Below the pieces are notes generated by a model. The model did not search any database. It worked only from the letters and a program-made list of their open reading frames with translations, and was not told the DNA's origin. A DNA stretch of 63,838 bases, the filler included, from Atractiella rhizophila (taxonomy: Eukaryota): assembly GCA_021432655.1 (NCBI GenBank). It is 10 parts of 10 records of this genome, joined end to end, with 100 filler letters (N's around TTAATTAATTAA, not from the genome) between each part and the next. Parts side by side here need not be neighbours in the genome. Positions count along the whole stretch, not along the records: positions 1 to 7,541 come from MU272203.1; 9 more parts are not named here. One strand, given 5' to 3'. A program made the translations under genes and the position numbers. Shown in pieces: positions 1-52,963 of the stretch (positions are counted from its first letter, which is position 1; the number at the start of each line of letters is the position of its first letter).

Positions 1-533
1 GGAAATGACGGAGAATATCAGCCTACAGCCATCTATGCTGGCTAGAACAGACTGAACAGTAGATTGGGCTGAAAATTTTCACATCCAACGGTATAGTTTT
101 GTATGATAATGCCTCAATCCCTGTTCTCAGAAGTTCTGACATGACGCATATTTCAAGCTGACGAACGTTAGCTTCGTTTTTAATAGAGAACTGGCTGAGT
201 ATTGGGAGGAAGAAAGGCTCATGGGGGCCTATCTATCCAGAAATCTGACGGCGACGAGTGCACAAACTCGTTCCCGATTGCCACTGTCATGCGGCCATGA
301 GTTATATACATGTGATGTCTGAATTTGCATGCGGAACGTTCTGCTTTGCTTGCAACCATCCCTATTGCTGCAAGAAAAGGAGAATGTTTGGCATGGTATG
401 AGTTTCATTTCGTTCGTCTCCTTGTTGGACGGTAGGGTCAGGGTCAATTGTTCCCAACAAGTCACCTCGTTCCTCGTTTCTCCCCAAAACTTCTCTCCAA
501 AACTGTTACACTATCGTATTAGAAAGGTTCAAT

Positions 534-858
534 ATGCCATACATCGCGACTGAAGTGGTTCTGCCCTTCGACAGGTCTCCAAATGTTCCTAGAATTCAAG
601 ACCTGGTCTATTTCCTATCTTCTGACCTCTTCTTGCTCATGCAGGAAGTATAGATGATTACCGGAGACGGTGTCTACGTCTTTATTTTGGATGACCACGA
701 AGTCCGTCTCGGAAGAAACCTTGCCACTGAAATCTGTGAAGAGATTCTTAAAAAAATGGGGACGGTTTCTCCCGCTGGGAACGCCAGCCGTAAGTTCGTT
801 CAAAGTGGTTTTCCCATTGGCTAAAGGTGTTGTGTCTGCAGTGGATGTCCCATCTTAA
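534..858 (+). CDS. Spliced 74-aa microprotein A1 of unknown function (exons 534-605, 654-789, 842-858)
   Basis: Hand-spliced: MPYIATEVVLPFDRSPNVPRIQDL|MITGDGVYVFILDDHEVRLGRNLATEICEEILKKMGTVSPAGNAS|LDVPS*. GT..AG introns of 48 and 52 nt. Paralog A2 has the same exon lengths (72/136/17 nt), ATG and stop position, with no indels. Confidence 0.7.
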
Positions 859-1638
859 CCGAAATCAAGAATTTGCAGCTAGTTGTGCGATTGTTGTTGA
901 ATTTTGGAATAGCACCCATCCACAAGCTGCTCTCCTCCCCTCGCGTTTTCCGTTTGTTTGCATTCCATCGTGTGATTGTACCCTTTCCTGTACCGGAATG
1001 CATCTTGCCACTCCTGACTGTCACCCTCAAAGCTCCAGACACCTCAGGCAAGTTGATCCTGTAGAATAGTCGCAACTTTGATGTGTCGATGTTTGTTGAT
1101 CTTGGCGGGTCGAACCCACTTCTACCAAAATCTGAGCAAACTTTAATAGTTGGACTCAATGCAATCCGATCGCTTGATCTTACCCCACAAAACAGACCTG
1201 CACGACTGGGAAGATTCCACGACCTGACAGCGCAAATTCGGGAACAGAAGCTGGCGCCCAGAGCTTCAGTGCATTCTTATCTGCCGAATATATTCCTGCT
1301 ATGGAGGGAAACGTCGATAAGAAGACATGTGATATCTCAGAAACCTATTTAAAGTCTGGTATTAGTGACCAGACTGCAGGGTTGGCATGCCTTTCCGCAA
1401 ATCTTCCGAACGGCGACTTTTAAATCTTTTGTTTGGACAGGGCACTAACAAGATATAGACTCTTCATTGGGTCAGGAATTAGGTCGATGCAGGGTTTGAC
1501 AGTTGTCGTAATGTAGCGATGGGAGGTTTGTGTCCGCAGTGTCGGACTACAAGAAATAAAAGGCAGGATCAGCGTCAGTCTTTTCGCTGCCTTGCCATCT
1601 TTTTTCCCTGAGCGTTTTCCAGTACCTCTTACCACATA

Positions 1639-1876
1639 ATGACCTTCTCTCTTGATATTCCTGCACAACATCCGATGGAGCCAGTTCATGCTTCGCTGCA
1701 GAGCTTAGTAAGTCTATCGATAGGAGGAGGAGTCGTTCAGCGGCAGCTGCTGAAATGTTGTTCGTCAGGCTCTTGACTCTCGTGGGAACTACGTATTCGT
1801 TATTAACGGACAGTACACCGTTATATCACCCGAATCAATAGCGAATGTGATGGACATCATCCGCCAAAAGATGTGA
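1639..1876 (+). CDS. Spliced 58-aa microprotein B1 of unknown function (exons 1639-1707, 1769-1876)
   Basis: MTFSLDIPAQHPMEPVHASLQSL|ALDSRGNYVFVINGQYTVISPESIANVMDIIRQKM*. Phase-0 GTAAGT...TCAG intron. Paralog B2 has the same 108-nt exon 2 and stop position. Confidence 0.7.
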
Positions 1877-2478
1877 TCTCTTTTAAGGTATGTTGTTTTA
1901 ACCCAACCAAGGTCTCGTCACAGTATTGACTGCACGCACAACCTACAGCATAGGATTCTGTAACATGCAATCTCTCAGTCTATCTGAGTCCTCATCTCAT
2001 GTTACTCTTCCTCGTCTCCATCTCAAGTTGTGATGCATCTCTACCGTACTCTTATTTCCTCTGTACCTTCGTGATGCATGATGTCCTTTACTTTGTATTC
2101 TTCTCCACCTCAAGTTGCTCCGCAACTGTCATGAGAGAGGCTTCGTGATTTCTCCTCACTCCGTTCTACAGAAACACCATATTTTCAGTTCTGATTTAGA
2201 AATGATTTCAAGACCTCTGCAGATGATGCTCACTACGTTCTCGTCATCAGTTTCTCATTTTCCATACACATCTCCATTTCAAGTTGTGACCAGAAACGGC
2301 TTCAAGGATTCTTTCCAGCAAAAGCACCATATCTCCTCCCTGCCGTGATTCCAGGCCTCGTGTAGACAATACCAAATTTTGGCATCCTGAACTTACGTGT
2401 ATACCCAATCTCAGTCCAGTATACGTCCGATAAGAGCACGTGGTGAACTAGAATTGACTTGCAAACGTTAAGGAAATA

Positions 2479-2834
2479 CAGTCATTTGCAATAGTGTATC
2501 AGTTGTCGTTTGTCGCTCGTTGTTAACTTCATTCCGGCCACCTTCCGCGTCGCAAAATGGCGCAGGCTGGCCCTTTTGCTCATGTGTCAACACTCCACAA
2601 GTCCAACAACCACCTTTTGACGTGTCCTTCAGGCAAATTCCTATGTTCTAATGTGCACCCCAGAATGTGTGTTCTCGTTTCTGCCTATTACGCTGTCTTT
2701 CGAAAAAGAAATCATTTGCTACGGGCACGTGATCTGCGACTTCACGGACAATGACGTAATTTCGCCACCCGGAGAATGGCCGGCATGAAGTTGTGACGAC
2801 GAGCGACAAACGACACTAATTTTGCAAATGACTG
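2479..2834. mobile_element. 356-bp non-autonomous Tc1/mariner-type MITE
   Basis: Imperfect ~80-bp TIRs (CAGTCATTTGCAA...TGTCGTTTGTCGCTCGT...AACTTCAT.CCGGCCA and its reverse complement). TA on both sides (2477-2478, 2835-2836). No transposase ORF. Absent at the paralogous site near 6140-6180. Confidence 0.85.
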
Positions 2835-4360
2835 TAGTAAATAGTCGACTTCTATGATGATGCGGGTGGTACGGTCACGTGGATCAATAGCCAAGGGGCC
2901 ATTTCCTATTGTTGCTTTATTTGATCTTGATCCTCGTCGTGTTTATGTTCCATTTGAATGTTTGGACGACCAATTCTTCTTGAACATTCATCACAAAAGT
3001 GGAATTCGCTGCACTGGTAAATGGATTGAATCGGTGTGAATGTTAAACTCTTATACAGAAGCGACGAACGGTTTACGGTCTCGGCCCAGACGATCACAGG
3101 TACAATACAACGGCTTTGCCCACTGTCAATATCCGTCGGAGATGAGTCGACAGGACGCACAAACTGTCACAAAGAGGTGTACAGGGACATCTTGCAGAAT
3201 TATAAAGCCTGGCTGGGCCAAGTCCTTCAGCCCCCTAAATTTAAAAGCCGTTAAAAAAAAATCAAAACGTCTTGTCGACCACTCTAGGTAAAAAAAATTC
3301 TTATCTATCCATCGAGCAACGATATATGGTGGTGTGAGTCGCATTATTATCGGTGGGGCATTATTTCAGCACTCCAATGTGAGTTACACGTGCTGGTGAA
3401 GGGAGAAGTCAAAGTTTTGATATCTCAAGTAGAGGATAATAAATGCTCAATGCTCTCCTCTCAATCTGTGTTTTCTCGCTTGTCTGCTACGTGTAAACCA
3501 GTACACAAACAGGAAACAGGCAAGGTCCCTCTCAAACATAGGCTCATAAAACTCTTAAAGCCTCATGACGCATCCTAGCATTACTTGCTGGAGCGCCAAT
3601 TATGCTGGAGCATCGATGTTCGAATTATAGCTACGACTCGCCTGATAGATTGTACCAATGAGCCATCTCTCGACCAAAGCCTACATATGAGAGTCCAAAC
3701 AGAAATGATGTTCGCTGGTGCATATATGGATTTTCCCATTCTTCTGACAGTTCAAAACGGAGAGACGTTCTGTGTTTTCGTTAAGCATCTTGATAGGATT
3801 GCTTGCTGAGGATGGCAGGAAGGTTGTGCCGTTACTCAAGCACTTTTGGGCTCGAATCGCCTTGATAGCGAGCCTAAAAATGGCATATGCGCTGACTCTG
3901 ACTGTGAATATCAGTTACAATGTCTTGAACTCTCGACAGAGGGAAGTGTTGAAGTGTTTAGCATCCAACACGATAGTGTTGTTTGTATGAGGGGATTGTC
4001 ATGCCATGTTTCGTATGATGTTTATAGTAACACGACAGCGACTTGGTTTTCTCTGAGAAAACGGTCAGAACAGTTAGCGGATATGCCGATCACTGCAAAT
4101 CAGGCAGTGGCGAGTCTACAATGTTGCTGCTAACGCGGTATGTGGCGATGAACAAGACACAGATGATGTACGCATAACATTCTGCTTTGTTTGCAGGCTT
4201 TACTATTTGCTGCAATGAAAGGAGGATGTTTAGCATGGACAGGTAAAGCGTTTCCCTTCTTCCTTTCACGTACGTACGGTTAGGGTCCAAATGTTTACCT
4301 GCATTCCTCTTTTGTCTCCAAACTTGATACGCAATCGCTGCTTATTATAGAAAGTTCACG

Positions 4361-4685
4361 ATGCCGTACAGCACAACTGAGGAGGTCAAGCCTATCCAGC
4401 AGGCTCCCGATGTTCCAAGAATTCAGAACCTGGTCTGCTGTCTGTCTGCCTTCCAATCTTCTCGCTCATTGGAGGATATGTAGATGATTACGGGAGGTGG
4501 AGTTTATATCTTCACCTTGGATGGCCACAAATTGCATCTCGGAAGAGAGGGTGCCTCTGACCTCTGTGTCGAGATTCTCAAACACTGTGGGAGGGCATCT
4601 GCTGCTCCAAACACTGGTCGTACGTTCGTTCAAAATAATTTCCTCTGTTAAAGGCCCAGTGTGCGCAGAAGTTGCCCCATCGTAG
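4361..4685 (+). CDS. Spliced 74-aa microprotein A2, paralog of A1 (exons 4361-4432, 4484-4619, 4669-4685)
   Basis: MPYSTTEEVKPIQQAPDVPRIQNL|MITGGGVYIFTLDGHKLHLGREGASDLCVEILKHCGRASAAPNTG|QVAPS*. Colinear with A1, with conserved splice sites. Confidence 0.7.
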
Positions 4686-5346
4686 TCGCATCTTCGTCGA
4701 GTCTGCTTAAAGCAAGAAACAGAACAAGAACGTCGCCCATTTTTGTGATTGTCTTCGCAACTTTTTGGAGCTCTCATCCAAGCTGTTCCCCTGAGTTTCC
4801 AGTCTTTCTTGTTTGTGTGTGGCTGTCGTTGTAATATGACCGTAGCGGGCCGAATCTGAAGCAAAGTTCGTACTCACATCTGCCCCCAGCTCGCATGAAT
4901 CTCTTATTTTTGCTGTTCACTACTCTTGGTTGAGGTTATCTCAGCTTAGTAACAGACATAAGTAAACTTTAATAATGTGCAGAGGTCAGAGGTCTCTTAG
5001 ATTTACTGTACTCTGGCGAACCATCACAAACTTGGCCGCAAAACAAAAAAGTTACTGGTGTCTATTGAGGTCTGCAGGGCATTTTCCTTCTGAATGGGAA
5101 ACATTGTCACTTCCATTCTCTCCGGTTCGCACGGTGTGGCTTGCCTTGTTTGTGACGCTTGCCCTCTTCTCCGAACCAACGTATTTGAGCAACAGGTCTT
5201 TGCTCGTTCTTTGTCTCGTTCTTTGGTATCTTCTGGAGGTACTGTTTCAGAATCTAAGCTAGGTCGCGTAAGGCTTTAAAAGCTACTACTGCTACATTTG
5301 GTGTAGAAGGGTGACGTAAAAAACCTCCACTGGAAAATTTCACCTT

Positions 5347-5458
5347 TCGTTGCCTCTTCTTGCTACCTATCCCAAATCAGTTCTCGTTGCCTCTTCTTGC
5401 CATCCGTCACAAAATCATCTTCGTTGACTCTTCTTGCCACCCATTTTAAAATCATCTT
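5347..5458. repeat. Minisatellite, 3 x 37 bp, just upstream of B2
   Basis: TCGTTG(C/A)CTCTTCTTGC starts at 5347, 5384 and 5421. Each copy is followed by a variable stretch containing AAATCA. Confidence 0.8.
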
Positions 5459-5469
5459 ATCATCTCGAT

Positions 5470-5718
5470 ATGTCCTCCCCTTTCGAACCTCCTCCTCAAG
5501 TCTCTACGAGTGCCACGGTGGTCACGATTCCTGCATCGCTCCAGAGCATTGTAAGTTAGGCGATAGTGCCTTTATATCGCTTTTCCAGCAACTGAAATAC
5601 CATTGGTCAGGCTCTTGACACTCATGGTGACTACATACTTGTTATTAACGGATATCCCACCGTTATATCTCGAGAAAGGATAGGGCTGGTTATGAGTATA
5701 CTTAGACGAGGTATATGA
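5470..5718 (+). CDS. Spliced 62-aa microprotein B2, paralog of B1 (exons 5470-5550, 5611-5718)
   Basis: MSSPFEPPPQVSTSATVVTIPASLQSI|ALDTHGDYILVINGYPTVISRERIGLVMSILRRGI*. Phase-0 GTAAGT...TCAG intron. Confidence 0.7.
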
Positions 5719-6380
5719 CACTTTGGAGGTGTGTGATTCTTTCTGCTGTCGGTTTTGTATTACCGTCAGGTTGTTTACTGACTACATTCATTCCAGATGG
5801 CATAGGATTCTGTGAATATGCGAGCTCTTCGGTTCAATTCTCTTGCGTCTTCGTCTCATCTCCACCTCATTACTTGCAGTGTCTCTGCGACTTCTCAATG
5901 TTTGCGCCTGCTTTCAATTTGTCTCTGTCTCCGTCTCAAGTTGCTCCTCACTCCCAATCGAGAAGTTATTTTAGATTTCTGCTCGTGCAGTCATGCAGAA
6001 CCACCACAGTTTTCGTTTTTCGTTTCCCATCTTAGACAACAAATCCCATTCTAGTTCATTTGTCTCTGCAATCGTTCTTTCCATGTCCAGTTCAATCAAG
6101 TTGAACAAAGGCTCAGAACGGAGTGCGGGATAAAAGCATTGACTTGCAAACGTCAGAGTAAATGTTACAAGTAGTCGACCTCGACGAGACTGTGCGAAAC
6201 TGGGAAATGCGGAGTCATAGTTGACCTACGAAACGTTCATACTACATACGGTGTATACTTGGTCAAATCTGGCTATCCTAAATCTCAGTGAAACGGCTGC
6301 CTTCAGATATGCTAGCTAGAGGATTGGTTGGTGGAGCATTGGACTTATTCGGGTTACCGGGAGGATAGGCCTATGCCGAG

Positions 6381-7541
6381 TCAGTTCTATGTCACAACGC
6401 AGAGGAGAGTGCGTACAGAATATCTATTCTCGCTCCTCCTCCTAGGGACTTTGCTCTTCTTCCTCACACCGACTTCGCCCTTGACGTAAAGAGCGCAGAG
6501 ACGCTTGAGGGGGTCGTTGTCGCCTCTCCTAGAGCAATTCGCGAGATGGGCTCGGACTATGGAGGGTCGTTTGAAAGGGTCGACAGAGTTTCGTGCCACA
6601 AATTTGAATCCGCAGATACATTCCCTCAAGTTAAGACATTGGCCACGAAGCCAAAAGTTACCGGGTCCTTTGCCTTGTTGCACACAGACACAGATCAAGG
6701 TCAGCCGTTGTCCCTCTGGACACAGCGAAGTACACACCCGTTCCTGGGAATTGCTCACTGTCTTCCACCCAAACTCTAACATAACCGTCCTTGGGGAACA
6801 CGATCTTCTCTCCTCTCCTCTCTTCTTCTCCCTCATCAGCTCCAGGACTTCCAAAACTATCAGGAGGGGCAGGTCGTCCACAACTCTCGTCCCAGAAAAC
6901 GATTAAATCCTCCGAGGCCTGCCTCGTCTTCACCTCTGGCATGGTCGACTGCGGCGGTTCACGATCCGCGGGAGATTCAGAACGGTGTGAATGAGCTGGA
7001 GAACCACCTCGAAAGATGGGATCGTTTGGAGGGGAATGGCGAGAGGCTGAGGAGGTGGAAAGGGGCCATGTACTCGAGGAAGGTCCGGGGGAGTGTCGAG
7101 ATTGCGGCGCGTGTGAGTGGACTGGTGCGGGATGGGAAAGGCCCAAAGAAAATGGAGGCAAGTTTTGTTTACTGTACTCGTTCGATTGCTCTACGCTCCC
7201 GTGTCAGGACATCCGTTATACGGATGAGCAAGAGGAGAAAAAGGACCTCTCAGTATTTGTCCTAACCGGACAAGCGGATGATCTCGTGGGAGATGTCTCA
7301 TGTTTACAGGATCTGAGAGGAAATTTTGCAAATCACCCCAGCTAACGAAGGCTTGTCCCTGTCCGTTCGAGGAAACAAAAAGGCCTTGCGGGTCAGCTTG
7401 AAGATGCGGCTGGGCATTGTTATCCCGTGTTCCAGAGCTGGGAACGTTGCCATTTGAATTAGTTCGCCCTGGTTGAGGTGGTGGAATGGCGTCCACTGCG
7501 TAGAAGGAGAACGGAGAAGGGGTGTTGTGGTGGTGAAAGAG
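6381..7541 (-). CDS. Hypothetical Pro/Ser-rich protein with a C-terminal Cys/His cluster (possible zinc finger); 5' end in gap
   Basis: Joins ORFs 7191-7496, 6658-7161 and 6387-6881 through probable introns. C-terminal ECICGFKF...SIVRAHLANC loosely resembles a BED-type CCHC finger. Confidence 0.45.
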
Positions 7542-7641
7542 NNNNNNNNNNNNNNNNNNNNNNNNNNNNNNNNNNNNNNNNNNNNTTAATTAATTAANNN
7601 NNNNNNNNNNNNNNNNNNNNNNNNNNNNNNNNNNNNNNNNN
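7542..7641. other. Artificial scaffold spacer (44N-TTAATTAATTAA-44N), first of nine
   Basis: Identical spacers at 15150-15249, 22739-22838, 30318-30417, 37883-37982, 45428-45527, 52964-53063, 60493-60592 and 62198-62297. TTAATTAATTAA places stops in all six frames. Confidence 0.97.
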
Positions 7642-38423: not shown

Positions 38424-41400
38424 AATAACTCAACTACGATTAACGGGGACAGCAACTTCCATTGAGCGCTGCATGGTGAAGGGATACAGTAAGTTAGCGG
38501 TTTGCACTCTCTGTTTCTGCTGATGCTACTGCTTCTGTTCTGCTCAAAGTGTTGTTAGTAGTTCTCGCGTTTACGACGGTTGAACTTCGTTCCTCACTGG
38601 TTGAAGAAGCCTTACAAATAGTTTGCGTCGGGTTTATGCCTAGCTCTCCACAAACTCTGTCGACTGCTACCTTGCTTTCCTAAGCTATCATCGGGACTAC
38701 TTCCGGAGCTCCTTCTTGGCCTCCTTCTCTCGTCACTGCTGTTATAGGCTTTAAACCAATGCTGAGGAAGCGGTATCAACTTACCAGTAGATTCGATATA
38801 ACTGTCGCATACGTCCCAGAGTTTGCGCTCTCCATAAAAAACACGTACACCGAAGGAATAGTGCTTCTAAATGCTTTTCGTTGCGTTGTTAGATAATCTA
38901 GGATACAATTGCACGTTAGGTAAGTTGTAGTAGCCATTGAGACGATAGTAAACGACACATGAGGTTCCAAGCGTATTTGCGTCTCCAAATTTGCGCTACC
39001 GCACTAACTAATGTGAGTGCTCACGTATCGACCTTCGTGTTCCTCCCGCATTGTTGAAGTCCGTTAGTTATTACTTCTTTTTTGGTAGGTTGGATTGGAC
39101 TAGATTTCTTATAGATGAATGTGGGACTCAATTTTCTTGCTTTCTTGGCCTGTACGTCTAGTTCTATGTTGTGCTAACCAACCTAACTACTTCTTGCTGC
39201 TTTCCTCGTTATTGCATTCATCCCTACTACCGTCGTGACTTCGTGATACGCGAGATACCTCACTTCCATAGTTCTGGACTTCCTTTCCCACTCCTGCTCC
39301 TCCGCTCTCTTGCAGTACAGGCGGCCTAAAACTACTTCAGGTTTAGTAGCTGCTTTAGCTTACTCAATAAAAGCAGAGATGATTCCTACGCTGGCATGAG
39401 GATTAGCTAGCGCTCACGCTGTAGTCTGTTCTATTAATTCCTCCTTGTCTCCTGTCCCTTCTTCTGCGTGCTCCTGGTTCTCCTTGTATATACGACGGTA
39501 CAGGAGAGAGGCGGTTATTAGAGAGCGGGTGAGGAAAGGACGGCGGCGTTAGAAACGTCGCAGTAACAGTACTGGCAATAGAAGCGGTAAGCCCCACGGT
39601 TGCTTCATTCTGTACTATAGCATTTCCAGCCTTATTAGGTGGAAGTGACCCTGCATCGAAAGTTTACGTTCTAACAGTTGTTGGTGTGCTCCATCTCTTA
39701 CTTCTTCGCGTGACTTGGGTACCGTACTATGCACGAGGTATGGTAAGACCCTTTTACCTCCTAAACTCCTGTTGCCTAAACCACGAGTATTCGGCCACCT
39801 TCGCTGGACTGGTAGGTAACGGCAGCTGCAGTTCCTCTATGAATATGACAGGGGCTTTCGTAAAAGTCAAGTGGGGGCACCTCTGCCCATGCCCCTTTGC
39901 TTGGACCATCGAAAGTAGGTCCGGGTATCACCCTCGTTTAAGCTAGTCGAAGAGGTAGAGGAATGTGCATTGGAGCAGTGTGACGTGACCAGGCGGCGAC
40001 TTGAACCACAGGTACTTGTAGAATAACTTGAGACGCTGTAGGTCTAAAAAGTAGAACTAAAAGGGTAGGTTGCGGAGTGAAAGGGGAAGCGGATTCGGTC
40101 CTCTCTATTACTCCAAGAGACAGAACGGGAGCTTTAGCAAACACTACTTTACGTTAGAGCGAGAGACCCTTAAAAAGGTCAGCTTCACCTGTAACTTGAG
40201 GTGTGGTCAGCATGACGGGGAGGTGTCATCGAACAAGAAGCAGAACTCAAAGGTTAGGCCCAGTATTGGTTATATCCATAGCCTTATGACAAGATCACCT
40301 CACTGCTCATATAGCGAGACACGACACCAGAACCGCTTTCATTTGTTGCCCTGCTCCCCTGGGTTAAGACACGGCCGTCGGTACCACTTGGGTACATTAG
40401 GGAAGGTAAGTCCTACAACCGTGTGCAGGTAGCACAAGGATATCAGTATTCGCTTTCTGAACCTTCTGAGAAGCTAACGACCTTGCCTCTCAACACTATC
40501 TCCATGTCTGCCCCACCTAAGTCTTTCCGCGTAGCCCCTCCAACCGCCTGTCCTCAAACGGGTCGCTCTCTTCCTACGTAGCCTTCCACGTTATTTTAGA
40601 CTGCCTGGCTTCAGACCAGGGCTGGTGTTGGTTAGGCAGTGCCTAAGCATTCTCTTCCTCCTTCTACTCTTTGTGAATGTAAGTGGGAGAAACGGATTGA
40701 GGTGTTCGGAGAGAGAGACGAGGGTTGGCTCGCGCTGTCGACCATCCAGGACGGACCAGTCTCACTTCAACTACTTGGGCAGAGGACCAACGGATATTGA
40801 ACGTCCTAGCAGAACGTTAGGGAAGGTAGGGTTGGGGTTAGGAAAGTCGAGGGGGTGCTTGGCGAGTTATTCTGAACAGTTTAGTCAACGCGCGAAGTTT
40901 AGAAAGCGGAGAGGCATTTAGAGACGAAACCGGAGGGGACAAAACTATACCTATCATTTGCATAGTGGTGCAAGTAACCGGTACTGTAACGAGGACACGG
41001 ACTCTAGTAAACCGAGGTTTGGGGTTTTTCCCACGCTCCAGCACGCGATAGACTCACCTTTCCTCCACTCCCTCAAACTGTAACACGAAAACTGTCTTTC
41101 GCTCCTTTGCTAGCATCGGAAAGCCCCCTACTGCGAACACACAGCTGGCTATACGCAGCATCTTCCGGAACATTCTGCTCTCGAAACTGCCCAATCACCT
41201 CCCACCTTCGAAGCCACGCGACAGCTCGTATACCCGGGTAACAAGGACTCGCGCTGCTTACTCCTTTCGCTGTCCCACAAGAACCCTAAGCCAACGCCTT
41301 TGGCCTAGACGGAGGTGAAGACTAAGCCTCGACCCGACCCTCCATCCCCTTTCCATCCTGCCCCCTTCTTGTATTTCCGGTAAGACCACTTTCTTGCCAA

Positions 41401-42014: not shown

Positions 42015-42170
42015 NNNNNNNNNNNNNNNNNNNNNNNNNATGTCGGAAGTTTCGTATGCCTGAGCGACAAGATCTTCACTGATCTTCTACCCACACCTTA
42101 ATGTAAGCACAACTCTTGCTTGTGGAACCTTTACAGCTACCGATGGCCCACTCAATTAAAGATGCGAAGG

Positions 42171-44227
42171 AATAACTCAACTACGATTAACGGGGACAGC
42201 AACTTCCATTGAGCGCTGCATGGTGAAGGGATACAGTAAGTTAGCGGTTTGCACTCTCTGTTTCTGCTGATGCTACTGCTTCTGTTCTGCTCAAAGTGTT
42301 GTTAGTAGTTCTCGCGTTTACGACGGTTGAACTTCGTTCCTCACTGGTTGAAGAAGCCTTACAAATGGTTTGCGTCGGGTTTATGCCTAGCTCTCCACAA
42401 ACTCTGTCGACTGCTACCTTGCTTTCCTAAGCTATCATCGGGACTACTTCCGGAGCTCCTTCTTGGCCTCCTTCTCTCGTCACTGCTGTTATAGGCTTTA
42501 AACCAATGCTGAGGAAGCGGTATCAACTTACCAGTAGATTCGATATAACTGTCGCATACGTCCCAGAGTTTGCGCTCTCCATAAAAACACGTACACCGAA
42601 GGAATAGTGCTTCTAAATGCTTTTCGTTGCGTTGTTAGATAATCTAGGATACAATTGCACGTTAGGTAAGTTGTAAAAGTAGGTTGCAAACGTATTTGCG
42701 TCTCCAAATTTGCGCTACCCCACTAACTAATGTGAGTGCTCACGTATCGACCTTCGTGTTCCTCCCGTATTGTTGAAGTCCGTTAGTTATTACTTCTTTT
42801 TGGTAGGTTGGATTGGACTAGATTTCTTATAGATGAATGTGGGACTCAATTTTCTTGCTTTCTTGGCCTGTACGTCTAGTTCTATGTTGTGCTAACCAAC
42901 CTAACTACTTCTTGCTGCTTTCCTCGTTATTGCATTCATCCCTACTACCGTCGTGACTTCGTGATACGCGAGATACCTCACTTCCATAGTTCTGGACTTC
43001 CTTTCCCACTCCTGCTCCTCCGCTCTCTTGCAGTACAGGCGGCCTGAAACTACTTCAGGTTTAGTAGCTGCTTTAGCTTACTCAATAAAAGCAGAGATGA
43101 TTCCTACGCTGGCATGAGGATTAGCTAGCGCTCACGCTGTAGTCTGTTCTATTAATTCCTCCTTGTCTCCTGTCCCTTCTTCTGCGTGCTCCTGGTTCTC
43201 CTTGTATATACGACGGTACAGGAGAGAGGCGGTTATTAGAGAGCGGGTGAGGAAAGGACGGCGGCGTTAGAAACGTCGCAGTAACAGTACTGGCAATAGA
43301 AGCGGTAAGCCCCACGGTTGCTTCATTCTGTACTATAGCATTTCCAGCCTTATTAGGTGGAAGTGACCCTGCATCGAAAGTTTACGTTCTAACAGTTGTT
43401 GGTGTGCTCCATCTCTTACTTCTTCGCGTGACTTGGGTACCGTACTATGCACGAGGTATGGTAAGACCCTTTTACCTCCTAAACTCCTGTTGCCTAAACC
43501 ACGAGTATTCGGCCACCTTCGCTGGACTGGTAGGTAACGGCAGCTGCAGTTCCTCTATGAATATGACAGGGGCTTTCGTAAAAGTCAAGTGCGGCACCTC
43601 TGCCCATGCCCCTTTTGCTTGGACCATCGAAAAGTAGGTCCGGGTATCACCCTCGTTTAAGCTAGTCGAAGAGGTAGAGGAATGTGCATTGGAGCAGTGT
43701 GACGTGACCAGGCGGCGACTTGAACCACAGGTACTTGTAGAATAACTTGAGACGCTGTAGGTCTAAAAAGTAGAAACTAAAAGGGTAGGTTGCGGAGTGA
43801 AAGGGGAAGCGGATTCGGTCCTCTCTATTACTCCAAGAGACAGAACGGGAGCTTTAGCAAACACTACTTTACGTTAGAGCGAGAGAGACCCTTAAAAAGG
43901 TCAGCTTCACCTGTAACTTGAGGTGTGGTCAGCATGACGGGGAGGTGTCATCGAACAAGAAGCAGAACTCAAAGGTTAGGCCCAGTATTGGTTATATCCA
44001 TAGCCTTATGACAAGATCACCTCACTGCTCATATAGCGAGACACGACACCAGAACCGCTTTCATTTGTTGCCCTGCTCCCCTGGGTTAAGACACGGTCGT
44101 CGGTACCACTTGGGTACATTAGGGAAGGTAAGTCCTACAACCGTGTGCAGGTAGCACAAGGATATCAGTATTCGCTTTCTGAACCTTCTGAGAAGCTAAC
44201 GACCTTGCCTCTCAACACTATCTCCAT
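42171..44227. repeat. Second ~2.06-kb direct copy of 38424-40505
   Basis: Near-identical, with a few substitutions, homopolymer differences and one ~27-bp indel. Abuts the EXS gene. Confidence 0.9.
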
Positions 44228-50648: not shown

Positions 50649-51968
50649 TTCTGATTTACGGTGTGAGCGTTAGCGATATTGGCAAGAACAAAGTATAATC
50701 TAGCTGCTACTTCTGCTACTTAGAGATACATAGACAACTTAAACTCCTTGCACGACCAGAATACTTCAGCAACTGAATAGAAAGTTGGAAGCAAACAACA
50801 TCATCCTGTATCTTTCTTAGTTTTATTCTCTGCCGTCACTTCCCCAGTCCGTTGCGGCTTCCCATTCTCTGCATTACCATTCGATGGTGAACTATCCGAA
50901 TCGTCATTCGCTTTCCGAATTGCAGAATTCTTGAGTTTCAGCACCAAGCCACCAGGCGGAGGCGTGGAGACAGATCTCCGAATGGGAATTTGTGACTTTT
51001 GCCCAAGATTGAACTTGATTTTGCCATTTCCTGGCGGGGTCGACGTGTCGCTTGCGGAAGGAGAAGGAGTTTTCAATTTCGGGGATGGAGTCGCGGGCTT
51101 GTCGTTCAAACCGACGATTGACCGTTTCTTCGCCAGATTCCCAAACGCCGATGCCTCCTCCTCTTCTTCTTCTTCCCGCCGACGCTTCTCTCCTGGTTTC
51201 AAGAGCGGTGGAGGCGGCGACGGTGCGCGGGACGCCTCATTTGCTACTGCAGATGGCACAGTCTCAGACGATGGAGGCTGTACCGTGTCCTTATCTGACG
51301 AAAGAGAATTCTGATTTACGGTGTGAGCGTTAGCGATATTGGCAAGAACAAAGTATAATCTAGCTGCTACTTCTGCTACTTAGAGATACATAGACAACTT
51401 AAACTCCTTGCACGACCAGAATACTTCAGCAACTGAATAGAAAGTTGGAAGCAAACAACATCATCCTGTATCTTTCTTAGTTTTATTCTCTGCCGTCACT
51501 TCCCCAGTCCGTTGCGGCTTCCCATTCTCTGCATTACCATTCGATGGTGAACTATCCGAATCGTCATTCGCTTTCCGAATTGCAGAATTCTTGAGTTTCA
51601 GCACCAAGCCACCAGGCGGAGGCGTGGAGACAGATCTCCGAATGGGAATTTGTGACTTTTGCCCAAGATTGAACTTGATTTTGCCATTTCCTGGCGGGGT
51701 CGACGTGTCGCTTGCGGCAGGAGAAGGAGTTTTCAATTTCGGGGATGGAGTCGCGGGCTTGTCGTTCAAACCGACGATTGACCGTTTCTTCGCCAGATTC
51801 CCAAACGCCGACGCCTCCTCCTCCTCTTCTTCTTCCCGCCGACGCTTCTCTCCTGGTTTCAAGAGCGGCGGAGGCGGCGACGGTGCGCGGGACGCCTCAT
51901 TTGCTACTGCAGATGGCACGGTCTCAGACGATGGAGGCTGTACCGTGCCCTTATCTGACGAAAGAGAT
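50649..51968. repeat. 660-bp tandem duplication of the PSY2 3' end and 3' flank
   Basis: 50649-51308 matches 51309-51968 with about six, mostly synonymous, substitutions. Possibly an uncollapsed haplotype. Confidence 0.85.
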
Positions 51969-52963
51969 TCGCGAACGAAGCCCCCAGCTGTGTCTTCATC
52001 CTCGTCATCGTAATCCACCAAACCCTTCGCAGGGGATCCAGGCAAAGGCCAGGACTGAGATTTCGGGACTCCGTTCGGATTGGCTGGCGAAGTTCTCGCA
52101 ACGATTAATCGAGGCTTCTTCCTTCCCTCCTCTTCCACATCGTCTGCATCCTCTAGAACCCGTTTCTTGGATCCGGTAGCAGAAGTTTGACCGGATCGGT
52201 TGATGACAGAAATGTTGAGAGTTCCCTCATCGTCATCGTCATCGTTAAAATACGACTCCTCGTCAGCGTCAATACGACGGCCGGGGCCCCAAGCACCGAT
52301 ACTGATCTCTCTCTTTGGCGTGCTATGGACATGAAAGGTATCAGGAGAAAGCAACAACAACAAAGTGAGAGTGAGCGCTAACCTAGTGTCAGGAGCAGAG
52401 GATACGGAGCTCGACAGCCTCATTGCGCTGTCGTTCATCTGCTCCCACTTGATGTCGAGTGCAGCGAAAGTCTTCAACTTGTTCCCTAAAGCCTTCATTC
52501 GTTCCTTATACACATCGAAAAGATGGTTGATGATCACCTTCTGGGTCGACTAGGACGAATGGAACACCCATTGGTCATTGGGCTCTTGGTAGTATAAGCC
52601 GAGGCGGACTTACAGATTTGATGAGTTCAAAAAGCTCGAGGCAGGCCGAAAGCGTGAGCCCAAAGCTGGAAACTTCCATCTCTACCAGACTGAGAAGTGT
52701 GCCGAAGACGTCGCTCCGGATGAGGGAACGGTTGTAGAAGTCATCCTGTTTTTGGACGACGGCCCGAAGGACTCTGATGCCAGCTGCAGAAGCAAAGAAT
52801 AAGGAGTCTGCAACGTCCGAGAAGAACAGGGTTGAAGCAACATACCTAATCGCAAGTGCTTGTAAGGGGTGCGGAGGAGGGAGACGATTTGTTCGAGCAG
52901 TTTTCCGGTGCCGGAAAGGACGAGGTATTTGGAACGGAATCCATGGCTGAAGATGAAGAAGCA
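51461..52963 (-). CDS. PSY2: PP4 regulatory subunit 3 (Psy2/SMEK), C-terminal part
   Basis: HGFRSKYLVL...YKHLRL.GIRVLR...DDFYNR...SACLELFELI; DADEESYFNDDDD; LVDYDDED. Confidence 0.85.

Follow-up and report, generated by a model that had tools for sequence, protein, structure and literature searches.

Fungal orphan small-protein families are short, confined to narrow lineages, locally duplicated, under relaxed constraint and, where annotated, recorded as hypothetical. The same features are seen in the four genes considered here, A1, B1, A2, and B2, which form an A-B-A-B array at 534–5718 of the window (the whole 63.8-kb stretch of DNA that was analysed) on a small scaffold of the root endophyte Atractiella rhizophila. 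Unlike in such families, however, 2 anciently diverged paralogues are here kept as an ordered pair and were duplicated together, A and B share an intron layout, and B does not occur in the protein databases searched. Among described gene pairs, AvrLm10A and AvrLm10B are neighbouring genes for small secreted effectors which reportedly act together (10.1101/2022.05.10.491286). The likeness lies in 2 small, unrelated-looking, lineage-restricted neighbours in a plant-associated fungus, whereas A and B are mutual paralogues arranged head to tail and have no signal peptide as judged by hydropathy. At the level of shape, the fold predicted for the array proteins, 3 antiparallel strands followed by a helix over about 40 residues, recalls the COMM domain, the PUR repeat, PC4/Sub1, and the chromo and chromo-shadow domains, several of which act as dimers. 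Here, however, no match is significant, the sequences are not alike, and A is acidic, so that the resemblance is one of shape and does not amount to membership.

The 4 genes, all on the plus strand, are as follows:

534–605, 654–789, and 842–858, plus strand: coding exons of A1, 74 aa, stop TAA; introns 606–653 (phase 0) and 790–841 (phase 1).
1639–1707 and 1769–1876, plus strand: coding exons of B1, 58 aa, stop TGA; intron 1708–1768 (phase 0); gene span 1639–2289.
4361–4432, 4484–4619, and 4669–4685, plus strand: coding exons of A2, 74 aa, stop TAG; introns 4433–4483 and 4620–4668.
5470–5550 and 5611–5718, plus strand: coding exons of B2, 62 aa, stop TGA; intron 5551–5610 (phase 0); gene span 5470–5843.

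A first-pass annotation of the sequence had proposed 4 short spliced genes of 74, 58, 74, and 62 aa, and these were confirmed by translation at the above coordinates and by RNA joints on all 4. The identical exon lengths it described for A1 and A2 (72, 136, and 17 nt in both) were recovered as well. The 4 introns it listed are correct, but a second, unlisted A intron is required for 74 aa, namely 790–841 in A1 (GTAAGT..CAG) and 4620–4668 in A2 (GTACGT..CAG); read without it, the frames give 80 aa (A1) and 79 aa (A2). It also missed an intron just past each B stop codon. In B1 this intron (1888–1948) begins 11 nt past the stop, and the 3′ untranslated region (UTR) reaches at least 2289; in B2 (5729–5796) it begins 10 nt past the stop, with RNA up to 5843. 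Each ATG is the first start codon past an in-frame stop, being for B2 the first ATG.

All 4 genes are transcribed and spliced. The RNA evidence consists of contigs from 3 root metatranscriptomes (runs X1 to X3), each with 5–7% of the sampled words, and placing these contigs on 300–6300 gave 12 records. Joints were found across 5 of the 8 proposed introns, touching each of the 4 genes, all of them GT..AG and on the plus strand:

604/605 to 653/654, plus strand: A1 intron 1, RNA joint in X2.
1707 to 1769, plus strand: B1 intron 1, RNA joint in X3.
About 1888–1948, plus strand: B1 post-stop intron, RNA joint in X1 and X3.
4619 to 4669, plus strand: A2 intron 2, RNA joint in X2 and X3.
5729–5796, plus strand: B2 post-stop intron, RNA joint in X1.

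Contaminating DNA cannot give rise to spliced joints. Over B1, an X3 contig of 531 nt covers 1641–1707, 1769–1883, and 1947–2289; this contig is one T short in the T run before the second joint, which is hence reported as 1883 to 1947 with one letter between. Over B2, an X1 contig covers 5620–5726 and 5795–5843, giving a GT..AG joint once the cut is shifted by 2 places. The contigs over A1, A2, and B2 show zero differences from the window. RNA cover is nil over the islands of identity upstream of the A genes (described below) and over 2900–4500, although absence of cover proves nothing. At 4579, a low-depth X2 contig across A2 intron 2 (record 8) has 30 unmatched letters upstream, partly like the 3′ end of A2 intron 1 by eye, which could reflect a chimera, a variant, or an alternative joint. 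In the interval between A1 and B1, contigs of all 3 runs cover 1216–1541; they differ from the window in the same respects and have a loose end of 61 letters ahead of 1216. This RNA could be a long A1 3′ UTR, a B1 5′ UTR, or a separate transcript, and the segment matches no Rfam family.

Judged by their sequences, A and B appear to be old paralogues with one three-exon layout and a core of about 35 aa. The resemblance and motif reported by the first-pass annotation are present in all 4 genes: [IL]Q.[LI], then the phase-0 intron, then.[IL]...G.Y[VI][FL].[LI][DN][DG]. Searches of A against B with tblastn gave no significant match (E 2.4–6.1), and a profile-profile comparison of the two pairs with hhalign gave P 0.001 and a probability of 21%, in the same register and with core positions 4–24 aligned. 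In a further test, the 4 A-B substitution scores were summed over the 35 columns of the core, with the intron as anchor, and the column order of the B pair was shuffled; the observed score was reached in 1 of 100,000 shuffles (z 4.7) with the anchor and in 9 of 20,000 when any offset was allowed. The latter figure is the fairer one, since the register had been picked after viewing the sequences. At an A-B identity of only 9–20%, the core motif, intron phase, and layout are nevertheless retained. The layout common to all 4 genes comprises a leader coding exon of 69–81 nt, a phase-0 intron, a core exon, and a second intron 118–136 nt downstream. In A this second intron interrupts the coding region, and the last exon holds 5 codons; in B it begins 10–11 nt past the stop. 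The shuffle and hhalign scores, together with the common intron layout, argue that A and B are related.

Alignment of the 2 diverged tandem copies supports duplication of the A-B pair as a unit. The distance from the A to the B start codon, on the same strand, is 1105 bp in unit 1 and 1109 bp in unit 2, and the copies lie 3827 bp (A1 to A2) and 3831 bp (B1 to B2) apart. A duplicated unit of about 3.83 kb had been proposed on this basis; the duplication of the pair and the 2 A-to-B spacings stand, but 3.83 kb is a spacing and not an alignable block. Between the units, blastn aligns islands only, namely 335–396 (81%), 491–804 (71%), 1744–1827 (79%), and four stretches of 17–29 bp, and the homologous segment amounts to about 2.0–2.2 kb (about 335–2870 minus a 360-bp insertion, versus about 4176–6180). 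The remainder of the spacing does not align, and the DNA between the genes is no longer alignable across units. The 360-bp insertion, at 2477–2836 downstream of B1, resembles a miniature inverted-repeat transposable element (MITE); it begins with TACAGTC, and its terminal inverted repeats, about 80 bp long, match at 77%. It is not found at the matching site of unit 2 (about 6150–6170), and there is no second copy in the window.

Searches with the A1 exon-2 frame led to hypothetical protein BT69DRAFT_1328994 of A. rhizophila (P0001; 74 aa), which matches A1 of the window at 73 of 74 residues, the difference being T27A. BT69DRAFT_1343625 (P0007; 74 aa), on a 7,541-bp contig, is identical to A2 at 74 of 74 residues. 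The third record, BT69DRAFT_1276543 (P0002; 52 aa), shares a 175,793-bp contig with P0001, starts at the exon-2 ATG, and is 86% identical to A2 (P0007) with a 2-residue indel; its model probably lacks the 24-aa leader exon present in P0001 and P0007. The A-type genes are thus existing NCBI gene models with neither name nor function, and B1 and B2 are unannotated so far as searched, so that the description of the array as hidden and unrecognised holds for B only. The setting had likewise escaped the first-pass annotation: the 7.5-kb piece carrying the array is a separate scaffold, the 7,541-bp contig that bears P0007, and near-copies of A1 and A2 are present elsewhere in the assembly, on the 175,793-bp contig.

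Outside these records, the family is confined to Atractiella as far as the searches reached. A profile of the 4 cores, run without length limit against 1.84 billion representatives, returned 6 matches at E ≤ 0.001, among which only P0001 and P0002, both A-type and from Atractiella, are family members; P0004 and P0005 are repeat proteins by sequence, and P0003 and P0006, each longer than 2,000 aa, match solely through numerous stretches about 12 residues long. Word-index searches gave matches in Atractiella proteins only, and neither they nor the profile search found a B-type protein. Metagenome contigs scanned with the B pair and the A pair yielded 34 and 254 pattern stretches, respectively, none passing tblastn, and hence no relative. 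Overall, no relative outside Atractiella was found in protein databases and metagenome contigs, fungal genome DNA lying outside the scope of these searches. With the threshold relaxed to E 10, Pfam still assigned no family to the 2 B cores or to P0001, P0002, and P0007, and the best match in a sequence profile search of the PDB had E 0.19; in line with the earlier claim of an undescribed family, neither these searches nor the profile search found a relative in a known family. We found no paper mentioning these loci, the A. rhizophila titles listed being mostly community surveys, with some taxonomy and a review. The genes thus constitute a lineage-restricted family of small, non-secreted proteins without described relatives, a familiar kind of thing: a tiny-protein family in a local array, partly annotated as hypothetical.

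It had also been asked whether the exons might be terminal exons of larger genes or remnants of transposable elements. The RNA contigs between A1 and B1 with their loose end, and the MITE-like insertion downstream of B1, would fit such an origin. Yet the start codons follow in-frame stops as described above, the NCBI A models stand alone at 74 aa, and the profile search, unlimited in length, found no longer protein with an A or B core. Moreover, the MITE-like element occurs only in unit 1 and outside the genes, and tblastn detected no additional A or B copy in the remaining 9 pieces of the window. We regard this explanation as extremely improbable.

The near-copies bear on a further explanation, raised as a speculation in the first-pass annotation: a toxin-antidote pair, with one of A and B harming and the other protecting, or an allorecognition pair, with variant pairs marking self. 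A two-gene unit, repeatedly duplicated and of restricted range, would be expected of such a system, and small-protein spore killers are reported in other fungi. The copies have also diverged unevenly, A1 differing from P0001 at 1 of 74 residues and A2 being only 86% identical to P0002 with the 2-residue indel. In its strongest form, A and B would make up a two-chain complex derived from one ancestral half-module, and the unit would be selfish or self-marking; this would account for the constant joint copying of the pair, and for a strong difference between the assembly copies in A2 where A1 hardly differs. If true, Pucciniomycotina would gain its first such system, one made of proteins under 75 aa. 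Against it, Pfam links the proteins to no known killer or het family, and the uneven divergence amounts to 2 comparisons between contigs that may be alleles or paralogues. Both the general explanation and this stronger form are in our view very unlikely.

The AlphaFold2 models of P0001 and P0007 agree on 3 strands followed by a C-terminal helix: strands at residues 21–27, 31–36, and 39–43 and a helix at 45–60 in P0001, and strands at 23–27, 31–36, and 39–43 and a helix at 45–59 in P0007. The per-residue confidence (pLDDT) of the core is 72–82, the ends are disordered, and the first strand of the predicted fold crosses the exon junction. In a language-model search of the ESM Atlas, nothing scored above 0.81 for P0001. 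The B core reached 0.92, with 118 shared features, against unnamed and thioredoxin-like fragments, and 9 of its 10 best family-bearing hits came from one clan. C-terminal strand-strand-helix fragments of the thioredoxin fold are thus the nearest clusters to the B core, but the score and the feature count fall in the chance range, neither A nor B has a CxxC motif, and no Pfam hit appears at E 10; we treat the likeness as a lead only. The "MP" with which A starts suggested a likeness to 4-oxalocrotonate tautomerase, which was dropped because A1 and A2 do not conserve the leader and it is not followed by a helix.

In line with the first-pass annotation, the proteins show no sign of a signal peptide or a CAAX end. 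By a simple hydropathy measure, with no dedicated predictor applied, none of the 4 has a signal peptide, consecutive hydrophobic residues among the first 30 numbering at most 3 in every case, and none has a membrane-like segment. No translation has a Cys at position −4, as the CAAX box of a basidiomycete lipopeptide pheromone precursor would. Cysteines number 0–2 per protein, with none in B, and the net charges are −5 (A1), −1 (A2), −2 (B1), and 0 (B2). These properties bear on the possibility that A and B cooperate in root association as leaderless, effector-like proteins, following a logic like that of AvrLm10A and AvrLm10B. Consistent with such a role, all of the RNA comes from root metatranscriptomes, and the genes are small, lineage-specific, tandemly duplicated, and paired as neighbours. 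However, the hydropathy result and the scarcity of cysteines speak against it, and the root libraries were selected for holding this sequence and are therefore uninformative on induction in planta. Such a pair seems to us quite unlikely.

We consider it very likely that the array consists of genuine protein-coding genes belonging to an orphan family. Several observations nevertheless weigh against the fuller explanation preferred below. Purifying selection, estimated from the aligned copies by Nei-Gojobori counts with a one-sided Fisher test, is weak: the ratio of nonsynonymous to synonymous rates (dN/dS), a comparison suggested in the first-pass annotation, is below 1 with significance for A1 versus A2 (0.43, dS 0.73, p 0.005), but not for B exon 2 alone (0.63, dS 0.63, p 0.15), and reaches p 0.002 when A and B exon 2 are combined. 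Differences over the 3 codon positions are only mildly skewed (21/17/30 in A, 12/9/14 in B exon 2), and short global alignments put the introns at 54–69% identity, close to the values for the coding exons (69.4% and 66.7%). The structure models are of modest confidence, with a mean pLDDT of 62 for P0001 and 59 for P0007, from alignments of 5 and 3 sequences. An exhaustive structure search over 48,161 chains gave a best Z of 4.0, which is not significant (unrelated models usually score 7–8), and Foldseek gave nothing at E ≤ 0.001; the top rows of both searches were small sheet-plus-helix modules, i.e., the PUR repeat, PC4, the COMM domain, and chromo-like domains. As to expression, the evidence is RNA in contigs of low depth (2–7) from environmental libraries, and the 3 runs share year and habitat and may represent one campaign. 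RNA cover is nil at A1 intron 2 (supported by the P0001 model and the A2 homologue), A2 intron 1, and B2 intron 1; among the 4 introns listed at first, 606–653 and 1708–1768 are joined, and 4433–4483 and 5551–5610 are without cover. Finally, the contigs over B1 and over 1216–1541 differ by about 3–7% from the window and may derive from the other copy or another strain.

Much of this is what one would expect of proto-genes, i.e., young, fast-evolving transcribed ORFs with nearly functionless peptides, in which the likeness between copies would reflect the age of the duplication, constraint on splice signals, and perhaps gene conversion. The short genes, the absence of relatives outside Atractiella in the databases searched, the dN/dS values of 0.43–0.63 with B not significant alone, the similar identity of introns and exons, and the low structure confidence all suit this explanation. 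By contrast, 4 of the 5 coding exon pairs are equal in length and the fifth differs by 12 nt, remaining in frame, whereas length differs in all 4 intron pairs, and all 4 frames are open despite about 31–33% nucleotide divergence between copies. The A and B cores have held one motif through a far older split: the motif, intron phase, and layout persist at 9–20% identity, which argues for long-lasting constraint on the peptide. We consider it unlikely that the array consists of proto-genes.

Our preferred explanation is that of an orphan family of paired paralogues. One gene would have given rise to A and B, after which the A-B pair was duplicated (dS about 0.6–0.7), and a further near-copy, either the other haplotype or a second locus, would have arisen or persists on the 175,793-bp contig. 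The products would be small, soluble, acidic to neutral intracellular proteins, in which a variable leader of 23–27 aa precedes a module of 3 beta strands and a C-terminal helix. This module may pair its sheet and helix with a second copy, either A with B, the heterodimer speculated on in the first-pass annotation, or like with like, and the resulting pair may act as a small adaptor or regulator in hyphae, root-dwelling hyphae included. With about 40 residues, such a module could do little by itself, and pairing is therefore the most likely mode of action on this account; it is nonetheless a doubtful element, put forward tentatively. The joint copying of A and B is compatible with a joint function but is no proof of one. 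Complex prediction with residues 16–64 of P0001 and the B1 exon-2 peptide, in which the first strand of B is partly missing, gave 0.09 and 0.12 against a mark of 0.34, a result that speaks neither for pairing nor against it. Taken as a whole, with its demonstrated and its conjectural parts together, we give this explanation about an even chance of being correct.

Apart from the coding exons, 3 elements recur in the 2 units:

335–396 (unit 1, upstream of A1) and 4176–4238 (unit 2, upstream of A2), plus strand: upstream island about 140 bp before the ATG, the units being 81% identical across 63 bp.
1948–1975 (B1) and 5800–5828 (B2), plus strand: start of the post-stop exon, immediately following the RNA-supported joint, with 86% identity across 29 bp.
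2015, 2102, and 2271 (B1 3′ UTR; feature span 2015–2286) and 5928–5943 (B2 3′ UTR), plus strand: the 16-nt motif TCTCCAYCTCAAGTTG.

The upstream island is more conserved than the coding exons, is partly palindromic (it matches itself on the minus strand), and includes a short frame that opens with ATG and counts 5 codons in unit 1 but 6 in unit 2. It may be a promoter or 5′ UTR element; an upstream coding exon at 335–396 was considered and dropped, as its frame relation to the A start codon differs between the units. The motif TCTCCAYCTCAAGTTG has 4 matches in the entire 63.8-kb window, all in B 3′ UTRs, a count reached in 0 of 100 shuffles, and the B1 copies fall within the transcribed stretch 1947–2289. 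Together, these elements point to shared regulation of the copies, as a candidate feature. Upstream of B2, 5347–5456 holds 3 tandem copies of a 37-nt unit (79% matches) that end 14 nt before the start codon; nothing similar is present upstream of B1.

The array lies entirely within piece 1 (1–7541) of the window, which comprises 10 separate assembly pieces connected by linkers of 44 N, TTAATTAATTAA, and 44 N, the first of them at 7542–7641. The first 8 pieces shrink steadily (7541, 7508, 7489, … 7429 bp) and are followed by pieces of 1605 and 1541 bp, which looks like a series of small unplaced scaffolds at the tail of an assembly. Since the pieces are separate scaffolds, genes past 7541 are not neighbours of the array, and neighbourhood across a linker is meaningless. 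Pfam matches on long frames past 7541 (RPE65, HSP20, C1 plus kinase, AdoHcyase, and others) accordingly belong to other scaffolds and were dropped as context. Within piece 1, an Rfam search of 1–7541 gave nothing at E 0.1, and a multi-exon gene seems to occupy the right end on the minus strand (6164–7541), with long minus-strand frames at 6658–7161 and 7191–7496, higher G+C, and RNA over 6164–6300; its longest minus-strand frame has no Pfam family. The other pieces contain a 2.09-kb direct repeat (38424–40505 versus 42171–44227, 98% identity) flanking a gap of 25 N (42015–42039), and a 663-bp tandem repeat (50649–51311 versus 51309–51970, 99% identity). Both look like recent duplications or small-scaffold assembly artefacts.

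The analysis adds 2 transcribed genes, B1 and B2, unannotated so far as searched, to the gene set of A. rhizophila and corrects the picture of the A genes, in that the NCBI model P0002 begins at the exon-2 ATG and omits the leader. It also delineates, in a root endophyte that has received little study, a family of small proteins for which no relatives are known. At present this is an ordinary orphan family and no new kind of system. Nevertheless, an ordered A-B pair maintained through at least 2 rounds of duplication offers a clean test case for whether tiny paralogues can work as two-chain complexes, and, if they do form such complexes, this would bear on how new small protein modules originate.

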